Below are positions 3,129 to 7,532 of a DNA stretch of 64,000 nucleotides, piece after piece. The stretch is from Promethearchaeia archaeon (lineage in GTDB: Archaea > Asgardarchaeota > Lokiarchaeia > Sigyniarchaeales > SOKP01), in NCBI GenBank assembly GCA_046483985.1, contig JAWOCD010000040.1, positions 32,001 through 96,000 on the forward strand, read 5' to 3'. Position numbers and translations under genes: made by a program. The first letter of the stretch is position 1; each line of letters begins with the position of its first letter. The notes below the pieces were generated by a model that was not told the DNA's origin, did not search any database, and was given only the letters and a program-made list of their open reading frames with translations.

Positions 3129-4004
3129 TTGATACTAAAAAATTTAGAATTCGGGAAATATCATGGCTTGGGAAATGACTACATTATTATAGACTGTGAG
3201 GATTATGATATCCCTGACGAGAAAAAGGGGGCCCTTGCGAAAAAATTATGTGAGTTTCATTTTTCAATTGGCGCCAACGGGCTGATATATGTTTGTGATT
3301 CAAAACAAGCGGATATACGAATGCGAATTTTTAATGACGACGGTACCGAGGCAGAAATGTGCGGAAATGGTCTACGGTGTTTTTCTAAATATGTATTCGA
3401 AAACGGGATCATCAAAAAAAATAAAATCAAGGTAAAAACGGGTAAAGGAATTTTAGAAGCCAAGCTTTCCATTCAAGATGGTACAGTCCAGAGTGTGGAA
3501 ATCGATATGGGAACGCCAATCCTAAAATGTGAGGAAGTTCCGGTCATATCCGAATCAAGGGAGGAAAGATGTATTAACGAGCCTTTAAAAATTCTGGATA
3601 AAACGTTTCAATTCACGGCAGTTTCAATGGGCAATCCACACGCCGTAATCTTTGTGGATGAGATGTTAAATGATGAGGATTTAGAGAAATACGGATCAAA
3701 GATTGAAGTGCATGAGCGATTTCCCGATAAAGTGAATGTGGAATTTGTCAAGGTCATTTCGGAAAATGAGAGCAAATTACGTGTTTTTGAACGCGGTGTA
3801 GGAATTACGTATTCTTGTGGAACGGGAACATGCGCTTCTGTTGTTGCCGGGACCCTACTAAATAAATTTAAAAAAAATAGCCCCGTAATAGTTCATAATG
3901 ATGGAGGAGACCTTAAAATTACTTATACTGGTAAAACTGTATTTTTGAAAGGACCCATTAAAAAAGTATTTATGGGTCATATTGAACAGCTAGAAATTAA
4001 ATAG
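3129..4004 (+). CDS. dapF: Diaminopimelate epimerase
   Basis: KYHGLGND, EMCGNG, SMGNPH, ERGVGITYSCGTG. Confidence 0.95.
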   Translation: MILKNLEFGKYHGLGNDYIIIDCEDYDIPDEKKGALAKKLCEFHFSIGANGLIYVCDSKQADIRMRIFNDDGTEAEMCGNGLRCFSKYVFENGIIKKNKIKVKTGKGILEAKLSIQDGTVQSVEIDMGTPILKCEEVPVISESREERCINEPLKILDKTFQFTAVSMGNPHAVIFVDEMLNDEDLEKYGSKIEVHERFPDKVNVEFVKVISENESKLRVFERGVGITYSCGTGTCASVVAGTLLNKFKKNSPVIVHNDGGDLKITYTGKTVFLKGPIKKVFMGHIEQLEIK

Positions 4005-4052
4005 AATCAATCTATAATTACAATAGATCTTTACGAATAAAGGTAGATAAGT

Positions 4053-5372
4053 GTGGAATATCAAGAGTGGTTAGAAAGAAAAGATTTACAATATGCCGAT
4101 GGAGTACTTCATATCGCCGGGATGAGCACTATTGACTTGGCAAAAAAATATGGTACTCCCTTATATGTAGTGAACGAAAAACTTATCAGAGAACGATATC
4201 GTCAGTTAAAAGAAGCCCTAGATTCCGAATATGAAAAAAATGATGTACATTTTGCCGTAAAGTCCAATTCAAATCTCTCAATATTGCAGATCTTGGACTC
4301 AGAGGGAGCAAAGTTCGATTGTACCTCTCAAGGCGAGATTTATACTTGTTTTCAAGCGGATATTGCACCGGAGAAAATCATTTACACCGGGAATATGTTT
4401 ACCAATGACAATTTAAGATATGCTTTAGACAATGATGTGATGATTAATTTGGATAGTATAAGTCAATTAAAGCGATTAGCAAAAATCTACGAAGAAAAAG
4501 GAAAAGATATAGAGAACGGAATAATCTCCTTCCGCATAAATCCAGAATTTGGTGCGGGGCATCATACGCATACAATAACGGCGGGTAAAGAAATCAAATT
4601 CGGCATTTTAGATGAACAAGTATTGGAAGCATATACATTGGCGAAAGAACTGGGATTTAAAAGATTTGGCATACATACACATCTAGGCTCGGGTATTATT
4701 GACGCCAACGATTATAAAGAGGGGATGAAGCACTATTTATCTATCGTGAAACAACTTGCTGAAGGATTAGATCTTGAATTTGAATTTGTAGATTTTGGTG
4801 GAGGGATGGGTATTCCATATAAGCCAAACGATGAGCCGTTTGAGATGGATTTATATGATGAAATAGTTATTGAACCATTTAAGAATTTGGTAAAAACTGG
4901 ACTACTTGGTGAGCCGACTCTCAAAATTGAGCCGGGGAGATTTATTTCGTGTGAATCTACCATTATTTTAACACAGATCAACACGATTAAAAACAATGGA
5001 TACAAATGGTTTGCGGGCGTAGATGCTGGTTTTAATGTATTGATACGACCGGCAATGTATGGCTCTTATCACCATATTATGGCTTGCAATAATAGAGGGG
5101 AAAATGATACCATCACTTACGATATTGTGGGGCCAATTTGTGAATCTGGAGATATTTTAGGAAGAGAGAGAGAATTTCAAAAATTAGAAGAAGAAGAATA
5201 CCTTGCGATTCTTGATGCAGGAGCCTACGGATTTACCATGAGTTCACCTTATAATTCACGGCCACGTCCGGCGGAGGTACTACTTCATGAGGGTACATCT
5301 TATCTTATCCGAGAAGCAGAATCATACGAAGATCTCTTAGAACACCAAAAAATCCCAGACTATCTTAAGTAA
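4053..5372 (+). CDS. lysA: Diaminopimelate decarboxylase
   Basis: FAVKSN PLP lysine, [27 protein letters not shown]. Confidence 0.95.
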
Positions 5373-5493
5373 GTGTTAACAATTTGGTTTTTCTCGCCTC
5401 CGCTAATCTTTCCACAAGTTGATACGAAAGTTTGGCGGGAAGTGGGATCATCTCTGGAGTTTCATTGATTGCATATCCGACCATAAGTTCCAT
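5365..5493 (-). pseudogene. metK: Fragment of bacterial/eukaryotic-type S-adenosylmethionine synthetase
   Basis: Hand translation [42 protein letters not shown] resembles the MetK segment LMFGYATNETPELMPLPI.LAHRLA.RL.EVRK; only 42 aa, absent from ORF track. Confidence 0.7.
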
Positions 5494-5600
5494 TTTCTTA
5501 GTTTTATTGAACAAAAATTTAAAATAATAGAATGTTTTTATTGTCTTGAGATAAAATTATAAATGAGAAATATTTGGGGCTTGGATACCCTCCAGTGTTT

Positions 5601-5668
5601 CTCGATGATGAGTCGACACAATGAAATCCAGAAATGGATTGATGAAAATGACTGACCTGCTCTGATAT
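5601..5668 (+). ncRNA. Box C/D guide sRNA
   Basis: Box C ATGATGA 5605-5611; D' ATGA 5621-5624; hairpin AATCCA-GAAA-TGGATT 5625-5640; C' TGATGA 5640-5645; box D CTGA 5662-5665; TATA-like TTATAAA 5557-5563 upstream and T-rich tract downstream. Confidence 0.85.
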
Positions 5669-5773
5669 TTTATAATTTTATCTTTCCTTTTTTCTCAAGT
5701 TTGAGGGTGCTCCAAAATTTTATCAGCTTCCATAATTCGGAAAAAGTGAGTTAAAAAAAAAATAAAATAGGAA

Positions 5774-6604
5774 TTAAAGACCTAACACTTCTTTGGTTGT
5801 ATATATTTTATTTTCATCCGCATGAGCGATGAATTTAATTGCTTTTATCGCCCCAGAAGCGAAACATTCCCTGCTATGGGCTTGATGTTTTAGTTCAATT
5901 CGTTCGCCTGGTCCAGCGTAGAGGATCGTGTGGTCTCCCACGATATCCCCGGCTCGAATGGAATGGATACCAATCTCGCTTTTGGCTCCCACCTTTCGCT
6001 TATTGGGACCCTTTGAGCGTCCAAACTTCACAACTTCGTTTAAGTCACAACCTAGCGTATCGGCAATAATCTGTGCAAGTGTTAAAGAAGTTCCCGAAGG
6101 GACATCACGTTTTCGGTGGTGATGCGCTTCAATAATTTCAATATCCCAATCGCTTACATACGCTGAGAGGATAGAAGCCATTTTAAACAAAATATTGACA
6201 CCTGTTGCCATATTTGAGGAAATTACTGCTGGCGCATCGTTTTCTTTTACATAAGTTTGAAAGTTATCGAAAAATTCATCGGATAATCCAGTAGTCCCAA
6301 TAACGCATCGAATCCCTTTTTGTACACAAATAGAACAGTTTTTTTCCGTGGCTTTTGCAACCGTAAAATCAACCACAACATCGGGCGTTGTTTGTTCACA
6401 TATCTCTTCTAGGTTCTTTACATTGTTAATTGTAATCTCTTTGGGGTCTTCAACACCAACTACACTTGACAATGTTTTTCCTACTTCTATAACATCACAT
6501 GCAGCGACTACTTCTATTTCTTCATCTTGGAGTGCTAATTTGCTAACTAATTTTCCCATTGAACCACTGGGGCCCAAAATTAATAATTTTATCATATAAA
6601 TCAC
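5774..6604 (-). CDS. dapB: 4-hydroxy-tetrahydrodipicolinate reductase
   Basis: GPSGSMG, VIGTTG, EAHHHRKRDVPSGT, IRAGDIVGDH; start may be 6595. Confidence 0.95.
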   Translation of the reverse strand: MIYMIKLLILGPSGSMGKLVSKLALQDEEIEVVAACDVIEVGKTLSSVVGVEDPKEITINNVKNLEEICEQTTPDVVVDFTVAKATEKNCSICVQKGIRCVIGTTGLSDEFFDNFQTYVKENDAPAVISSNMATGVNILFKMASILSAYVSDWDIEIIEAHHHRKRDVPSGTSLTLAQIIADTLGCDLNEVVKFGRSKGPNKRKVGAKSEIGIHSIRAGDIVGDHTILYAGPGERIELKHQAHSRECFASGAIKAIKFIAHADENKIYTTKEVLGL

Positions 6605-6632
6605 TTCATTATTCTTATAAAAAATAAAAAAA

Positions 6633-7532
6633 TTAGAGAATGTTTAAACTTTTCAAAACTTTTTTGATCATTTCACGACTGTCCTCCACTGGAAGGGTAA
6701 GCGGTAATCGCAACCTGTCATTCATTAGACCCTTTAACCCCGCTGCATATTTTACCGGTCCGGGATTTGTTTCAATAAATAATACCTTGAAGAGATCATA
6801 TAGGTCTAACTGCATCTCTCTTGCTTTATCCCAGTTACCTTGCAACATTAATTCCGTAAATTCATGAATCCTACCAGGGATGATATTGGATGCAACGCTG
6901 ATAACCGCGCGCCCGCCCAATGCCATAATGTGGTAAGTTAATGCATCATCTCCGCTCATGACAATAAAATCATCGGGTGTGGATTTAATAACTTTAGTAA
7001 TCTGATCGATGTTCCCGCTGGCACATTTGATTCCTACAATATTATCCTTCGAATAGGCAAGTTCCGAAACAGTTTCGGGATCAAGATTACGAACCGTTCG
7101 TCCTGGGACATTATAAAGAATTATAGGGGTATTTACAGCCTCGGCAATGGCTTCGTAATGATCAATCAATGAATGTTGGACGGGTTTATTATAATAAGGA
7201 ACAACAATCAAAAGACCGTCAGCACCCGCCTCTTCTGCATATTGGCTGAGCTCAATAGCTTCTCTTGTGGAATTACTCCCCGTGCCCGCTAAAACAAAGG
7301 GATCTTTTCCGCTTTTTTTTGCTTCATCTATTGTAATATCGATTGCTTGGCGATGTTCTTTATGAGAGAGGGTTGCACTTTCTCCAGTAGTCCCCATGGT
7401 AAGTAGTTGCGCGTTGTTGTCTATTTGAAAACGAATAAACTCCCGATATTTCTCCTCATCAATTGACATATCCTCTTTAAAGGGAGTAATCATTGCGGTA
7501 CATACTCCCTTCAATTTATCTAATTTTGACAT
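6633..7532 (-). CDS. dapA: 4-hydroxy-tetrahydrodipicolinate synthase
   Basis: GTTGES, PYYNKP, LYNVPGRT, GIKCASG, ETNPGPVK. Confidence 0.95.
   Translation of the reverse strand: MSKLDKLKGVCTAMITPFKEDMSIDEEKYREFIRFQIDNNAQLLTMGTTGESATLSHKEHRQAIDITIDEAKKSGKDPFVLAGTGSNSTREAIELSQYAEEAGADGLLIVVPYYNKPVQHSLIDHYEAIAEAVNTPIILYNVPGRTVRNLDPETVSELAYSKDNIVGIKCASGNIDQITKVIKSTPDDFIVMSGDDALTYHIMALGGRAVISVASNIIPGRIHEFTELMLQGNWDKAREMQLDLYDLFKVLFIETNPGPVKYAAGLKGLMNDRLRLPLTLPVEDSREMIKKVLKSLNIL

Follow-up and report, generated by a model that had tools for sequence, protein, structure and literature searches.

Does the gap between lysA and dapB in this Loki-type Asgard genome encode a box C/D guide RNA, which rRNA nucleotide would it address, and how does it stand to the eukaryotic snoRNAs SNORD25 and snR56, which are known for a site in the same part of the small-subunit rRNA? 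We analysed the window, a 64,000-nt stretch of contig JAWOCD010000040.1 from a Promethearchaeia archaeon, whose genome (4.06 Mb, 35% G+C) is 97% complete, together with homologous loci, rRNA sequences, Rfam families, and published guide RNAs.

The box C/D core between lysA and dapB

The genes on either side of the RNA are lysA (4053-5372, + strand) and dapB (5774-6604, − strand), a convergent pair. Both belong to a diaminopimelate/lysine cluster (3129-7532) that encloses the RNA and carries dapF and lysA on the + strand and dapB and dapA on the − strand; a functional link between the RNA and this cluster was not apparent. The initial annotation had described a C-D'-C'-D layout in this gap, with a GAAA-capped internal stem and a guide at 5651-5660, and each element was found where it had been placed, on the + strand. 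The elements of the core are as follows.

5605-5611 (+), box C: AUGAUGA here, AUGAAGA in most relatives
5612-5620 (+), D' spacer: 9 nt, variable, a convincing target being absent
5621-5624 (+), box D': AUGA, nearly invariant among homologues
5625-5640 (+), stem with GAAA loop: 6 bp, closing the C'/D' motif as a full K-turn
5642-5648 (+), box C': AUGAAAA here, AUGAUAA in relatives, preceded by G5641
5649-5661 (+), D spacer: guide 5651-5660 plus a U5661.G wobble, with C5657 opposite the target G
5662-5665 (+), box D: CUGA, present in 49 of 50 homologues

Comparison of 50 homologues refined box D' to AUGA, which departs from the consensus CUGA. The first reading had delimited the internal features as a stem at 5626-5630/5635-5639 with the GAAA cap and a UGAUGA-type box at 5640-5645; the sole register of box C' that fits all 50 homologues is 5642-5648. 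With box C' so placed, the C'/D' motif is modelled as a K-turn in which 5623-5624 form sheared G.A pairs with 5644-5645 and a 3-nt bulge occupies 5641-5643 (G5641, A5642, and U5643). The stem that closes it (5625-5630/5635-5640) covaries at four of its six pairs, with both sides changed among the 50 sequences, and its capping loop differs in length and sequence between homologues. Boxes C' and D' are degenerate, and in relatives box C is degenerate as well. The D' spacer is 9 nt throughout; the D spacer has a length of 12 nt in relatives, and one inserted G brings it to 13 nt in the window. The 9-nt D' spacer and the degenerate C'/D' boxes deviate from the archaeal 12-nt rule.

A relaxed box pattern gave one match in the 4-Mb genome and 0-1 in shuffled or reversed genomes, and the box layout by itself is weak evidence for an RNA. 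We regard the RNA as real because of the combination of a register-correct, unique best rRNA site (see below), conservation, and covariation, the box layout alone being insufficient.

BLAST found four homologues, from which a covariance model (R1) was built. R1 detected one full-length copy in 108 of the 134 family genomes, covering 11 of 13 genera (E values of 1e-14 to 1e-26), in the same gene neighbourhood. The R1 search found no copy in the other 26 family genomes, four of which are 98-100% complete. Among the relatives' loci tested (n = 36), the RNA was flanked by lysA in 30 and by dapB in 23, and it usually began ~60 nt past the lysA stop. In the window, lysA and the RNA are separated by an extra 120 nt, which are occupied by a 49-codon ORF (5365-5514, −). 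This ORF gave no tblastn match against the 36 relatives' loci and is probably not a gene.

When 185,579 species were scanned with an exact pattern, 52 stretches matched. Most came from MAGs titled Promethearchaeota, in line with the earlier assignment of the guide to Asgard archaea; the minority labels were other Asgard, "uncultured archaeon," and one bacterial. Two GC-rich matches titled Streptomyces and Chloroflexia were rejected as chance. On this comparative evidence, we take the RNA to be a genuine box C/D guide that is conserved in Loki-type Asgard archaea.

Complementarity of the D guide to 16S rRNA helix 34

The D guide had been read as complementary to archaeal 16S rRNA, with the first G of CAGGUC as the nucleotide selected by the D+5 rule. 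In the host genome, a 23S gene is present, 16S is not assembled, and the target word is found only as the complement of the guide itself. With the host 16S unassembled, the pairing rests on the 16S sequences of relatives; the guide pairs with helix 34 in every one of these. The site was present, within GGCAGGUCAGUAUGCC, in each of six full-length 16S sequences of the order, one of which belongs to the family itself, and it recurred in 16S fragments from three RNA-bearing genomes (G018, G004, and G039). When U5661 is counted as position 1, the fifth nucleotide is C5657, which pairs with the first G of CAGGUC, so the register proposed at the outset was confirmed. By the fifth-nucleotide rule, the predicted target is E. 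coli position 1197 in helix 34.

When 13 distinct D spacers were scored, the helix 34 site reached 10.1 of 12, compared with 8.6 for the next best 16S/23S site, and is the unique best rRNA site for the D guide. The duplex comprises 12-13 bp in relatives and 10-11 bp in the window, where the extra G in the guide limits it. Most relatives have U in place of C5656; the opposite base is G, and the pair is thus kept as G.U and the duplex lengthened. The base adjoining box D is free to vary across homologues, which fits an unpaired first position. An invariant C faces the target in a Watson-Crick pair, and the fifth-nucleotide register of the guide relative to box D is kept in all 50 homologues.

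No outstanding rRNA site was found for the D' spacer when 21 distinct spacers were scored. The 23S peptidyl-transferase loop and the 16S 530 loop were considered as targets of a D' guide and rejected, neither being outstanding over all homologues. As no convincing target emerged for the 9-nt D' spacer, the RNA is probably a single guide.

The 23S gene of the host (G000:C37:76083-79434) lies in a contig region of its own, and the 16S and 23S matches of relatives are also apart. This suggests that the rRNA genes are unlinked in this lineage.

The register given for SNORD25 and snR56 in the initial annotation also proved right: by the published numbering and the Rfam consensus, the predicted target corresponds to yeast G1428 (snR56) and human Gm1490 (SNORD25). 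The conserved eukaryotic block occupies Saccharomyces cerevisiae 1422-1440, by which the first G of CAGGUC is G1428 (PMC3940700). Gm1428 is a helix 34 modification guided by snR56 and is equivalent to human Gm1490 and Arabidopsis Gm1431 (PMC2794176), and deletion of snR56 results in the loss of one Gm from 18S rRNA (PMC4344503). In the alignment of Dennis et al. 2015 (supplement 3), the target stands opposite E. coli A1197 in helix 34 (PMC4644070).

The guide with its box was found in at least eight Asgard families, and a reversed control pattern gave no matches. Outside the order, the guide occupies the D' slot of two-guide sRNAs, which are compact (~55 nt) in family f25. A published guide with the same register exists in sR32 of Pyrobaculum calidifontis (Dennis et al. 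2015, BMC Genomics 16:632, PMC4644070, Additional file 1); its letters and spacing are the same, and so is the predicted target G in 16S helix 34. Because the guide occurs both in at least eight Asgard families and in sR32, the helix 34 G is a recurrent predicted target in archaea. Thus, of the proposal that the modification site is shared with eukaryotes, the prediction of the same G stands, but the site is no speciality of Asgard archaea and eukaryotes, since P. calidifontis sR32 has the guide.

The initial annotation had further suggested that the RNA is possibly a snoRNA orthologue. In such a case of direct descent, a helix 34 guide gene would have passed from an Asgard ancestor to eukaryotes, and the RNA of the window would be the archaeal orthologue of SNORD25/snR56. 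The predicted target nucleotide and the guide-to-box register coincide with those of the Rfam snR56 consensus, the guide is spread over at least eight Asgard families, and in distant families it is held by the D' slot, as in snR56. However, the likeness is limited to the boxes and the guide, with no link beyond them. Rfam snR56 (RF01188, clan CL00049) scored the RNA at 21.4 bits (E = 1.3) against a gathering threshold of 54. In the Rfam search of the window, only a tRNA elsewhere reached the gathering threshold, and among the sub-threshold matches the weak snR56 match was the only one that reflects the guide. In Rfam, the best matches of the compact Asgard versions are generic archaeal C/D families and not snR56, and the same guide is carried by a crenarchaeon in the form of sR32. 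In addition, drift and convergent evolution of guides are reported by Dennis et al. 2015 (PMC4644070), and a guide of 10-12 nt to an invariant rRNA site holds too little information to serve as proof. We consider direct descent unlikely, and the suggestion of orthology was not upheld.

Simple scans of the host genome (G000) detected no other canonical C/D sRNA with rRNA complementarity; they gave 38 matches, compared with 24 in the reversed control, which represents coding-sequence noise. Guides may be very few in this lineage; alternatively, their boxes may be too degenerate to be caught by such scans. A published catalogue of Asgard C/D sRNAs was not found in the literature searched, which was limited in scope.

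The proposed ~137-nt RNA around the core

The core lies within a larger structure, whose elements are as follows.

5511-5526 (+), A-rich BRE/TATA-like box: putative promoter, ~27 nt upstream of the first closing-stem base
5548-5563 (+), 5' arm of the closing stem: 16-bp outer stem, from the MFE fold and covariation
5565-5603 (+), hairpin next to box C: 9-nt loop at 5580-5588 with GGAUAC, predicted C helix of the terminal K-turn
5669-5684 (+), 3' arm of the closing stem: from the MFE fold and covariation
5688-5693 (+), T6 run: likely archaeal terminator just past the stem

An inverted repeat around the core (5549-5563/5669-5683) is invariant in the first five homologues. The 15-mer of this repeat occurs at only four sites in the genome, two of which are the stem arms themselves, and on this count a mobile or repeated element was rejected. 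A splice-type processing motif around the RNA was also rejected on inspection, the closing stem being a continuous helix without two 3-nt bulges.

In the alignment of 50 sequences, 95% of the cells were paired, and 22 of 32 pairs showed double changes, including 11 of 17 pairs in the outer stem and seven of nine modelled pairs in the hairpin. None of 500 shuffles reached the real alignment, and slid controls were 39-57% paired. The numbers of G.U versus A.C cells were 38 versus 5 in the outer stem, 71 versus 3 in the hairpin, and 22 versus 6 in the K-turn stem. This excess of G.U shows that it is the + strand RNA in which the helices form, rather than DNA or an antisense transcript. In a DNA contig of a relative from another metagenome, the hairpin stem carries three substitutions, all of which keep the pairs. 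The GGAUAC loop shows no variation in alignments A3, A5, and A6, and two other families of the order, in which the closing stem is missing, retain the hairpin with GGAUAC as well. Between the hairpin and the first GA of box C, there are 2-4 unpaired nt in 47 of the 50 homologues.

Extra copies were observed in several genera at 0.4-4 kb from the main copy (L052:1925-2057, L054:2976-3103, L058:27-136, L097:1472-1604, L060:1116-1257, and L100-L102). Some are partial, consisting of the 3' half and the 3' arm; the others are divergent second copies, which have the hairpin and the core without a closing stem and a guide with one extra base. Local duplication and decay are suggested by these forms.

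In ~50 homologues, an A-rich box and, after it, a box of the AATAAAA/TTTAAAA type stand at a fixed distance from the stem, and T-rich stretches were found downstream of the 3' arm. Because of the promoter-like box upstream and the T-runs downstream, the stem-closed RNA of ~137 nt is probably the primary transcript. Four sequencing runs were compared, and in each of two runs one contig overlies the stretch. The metatranscriptome contig (5583-5793, 211 nt, depth 2.7, strand ambiguous) begins inside the hairpin loop and enters dapB, and therefore fits an antisense dapB 3' UTR equally well as the RNA. It is compatible with the C/D RNA, a dapB 3' UTR, or DNA carry-over and is evidence neither for nor against transcription of the RNA. 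Nothing lay over the stretch in two more RNA runs from the same study. Among the host genes, those for Nop5 and fibrillarin are adjacent, and two L7Ae-family genes are present.

From the sequence, its complementarity, conservation, and covariation, and the protein genes, we infer the limits of the transcript, the assembly of an RNP, methylation, and a role of the extra hairpin in the following form. The locus would produce an independently transcribed RNA of ~137 nt (5548-5684, +), the core of which is a box C/D methylation guide; we give this reading a probability of roughly 0.8. L7Ae would occupy the two K-turns, and Nop5-fibrillarin would then assemble. The spacer upstream of box D would pair with the 3' strand of 16S helix 34, and fibrillarin would 2'-O-methylate the first G of CAGGUC (E. 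coli 1197, yeast G1428, and human G1490). A true K-turn, closed by its covarying stem-loop, would form at the internal C'/D' motif. In the terminal C/D motif, the C helix would be a loop-capped hairpin, not the RNA ends; the 5' and 3' ends would instead pair as a 16-bp stem branching from the box D strand. This k-junction layout probably nucleates the K-turn and shields the RNA ends.

The extra hairpin leaves room for other roles. The RNA could act as an assembly chaperone on the 3' strand of helix 34, or the hairpin could deliver another factor, with methylation absent or secondary. The hairpin loop is invariant without having a guiding role; in its size, last five letters, and closing bases it is also like the loop at the apex of 16S helix 24 in this lineage. 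Box C (in relatives), box C', and box D' are degenerate, and chaperone roles for C/D sRNAs are proposed by Dennis et al. 2015 (PMC4644070). However, the exact fifth-nucleotide register, which is relevant only to catalysis, is kept in 50 of 50 homologues, an invariant Watson-Crick C stands opposite the target, and the host encodes fibrillarin. We regard either of these roles, with methylation absent or secondary, as very unlikely. The complementarity of the hairpin loop to rRNA was no better than chance, and its likeness to helix 24 is an unexplained resemblance, not a finding. It is a highly tentative idea that the hairpin is a second functional domain that binds a small-subunit assembly or initiation factor reading the helix 24 loop, whereby the RNA would couple helix 34 methylation to a step of 30S maturation.

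The notion that the repeat and the hairpin are DNA or mRNA signals of the convergent lysA/dapB pair (a bidirectional terminator or a UTR element), with the C/D core merely inside, would suit the position of the RNA between convergent genes and ~60 nt past the lysA stop in relatives, the arms, which read as a T-rich stretch from either side, and the single RNA contig that covers the dapB end and the element, but it is most improbable in view of the compensatory changes and the outer-stem G.U to A.C ratio of 38 to 5, which show pairing in + strand RNA, the conserved promoter-like box at a fixed distance upstream, the persistence of the hairpin with the C/D core in families without the repeat, and the placement of the hairpin within 2-4 nt of the box C bulge.

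Comparison with known guide RNAs and k-junctions

The methylation guide proposed here agrees with archaeal box C/D sRNAs in having C, D, C', and D' boxes and an rRNA guide, with L7Ae, Nop5, and fibrillarin encoded by the host. It differs from them in two respects: archaeal sRNAs have a total size of 50-70 nt and a terminal K-turn closed by their own RNA ends. As in P. calidifontis sR32, whose spacer is 12 nt long, the ten guide letters of 5651-5660 are followed by one unpaired base and then box D. In contrast to the RNA of the window, sR32 is compact (~50 nt), has a D' guide of 13 nt, and lacks a closing stem and an extra hairpin.

The same helix 34 guide and box chemistry are also found in the Asgard dual guides (L136, L137, and L107-L112) and the generic families they match (sR1, sR17, and snoPyro_CD). 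In the Asgard dual guides, two of which are ~55 nt long, this guide sits in the D' slot, and a second guide of 12 nt pairs with the opposite strand of helix 34; unlike the RNA of the window, they have neither the GGAUAC hairpin nor the closing stem. The D guides of L136:73-128 (−) and L137:70-126 (−), as well as those of L107 and L108-L112, are complementary to this opposite strand (GUGGUGCAUG). By the fifth-nucleotide rule and the numbering of PMC3940700, the predicted target in GUGGUGCAUG is the equivalent of yeast Gm1271 (snR40). The 16S genes of the dual-guide Asgard genomes themselves are not assembled. If this prediction is true, one archaeal RNA serves both helix 34 Gm sites, for which yeast uses two snoRNAs.

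The guanosine of helix 34 sits above the A site of the decoding centre. In yeast, loss of the helix 34 Gm results in slightly more −1 frameshifting (PMC2794176). In yeast, humans, and plants, snoRNAs direct the methylation of this G, and guides of several Asgard lineages and of a crenarchaeon target the same nucleotide. The helix 34 site, not necessarily the gene, is thus a candidate for a feature maintained from archaea to eukaryotes. Canonical C/D guides seem to be very scarce in Loki-type genomes; with so few in these mesophiles, each conserved one would mark a modification that has been retained.

Compared with snR56/SNORD25 (RF01188), the RNA of the window has a homologous predicted target nucleotide, and the spacing between guide and box in the Rfam snR56 consensus is identical to that in the window. 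On the other hand, the guide precedes box D' in snR56 and box D in the window, the eukaryotic target is CAGGUCUG and the archaeal target is CAGGUCAG, and the likeness ends with the boxes and the guide.

[quoted passage not shown] 2014, PMC4005666; PMC10573300). In the RNA of the window, boxes C and D form the predicted NC helix, the bulged strand runs on into the C helix (the hairpin), and the closing stem emerges as a branch of the non-bulged strand, which carries box D. A three-way k-junction layout, a fold derived here from secondary structure only, is accordingly predicted for the terminal C/D motif, whereas the known k-junctions are riboswitch junctions and not L7Ae-binding C/D motifs. 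In the literature searched, we found no described example of a C/D RNA with such a layout. As a guide, this is an ordinary kind of RNA whose target has already been predicted in Crenarchaeota; what sets it apart is the conserved RNA into which it is built, with a predicted three-way junction and an invariant hairpin. Eukaryotic snoRNAs are often elaborated beyond the minimal C/D form, and the architecture described here offers a testable case of an archaeal guide elaborated beyond the minimal form of 50-60 nt.
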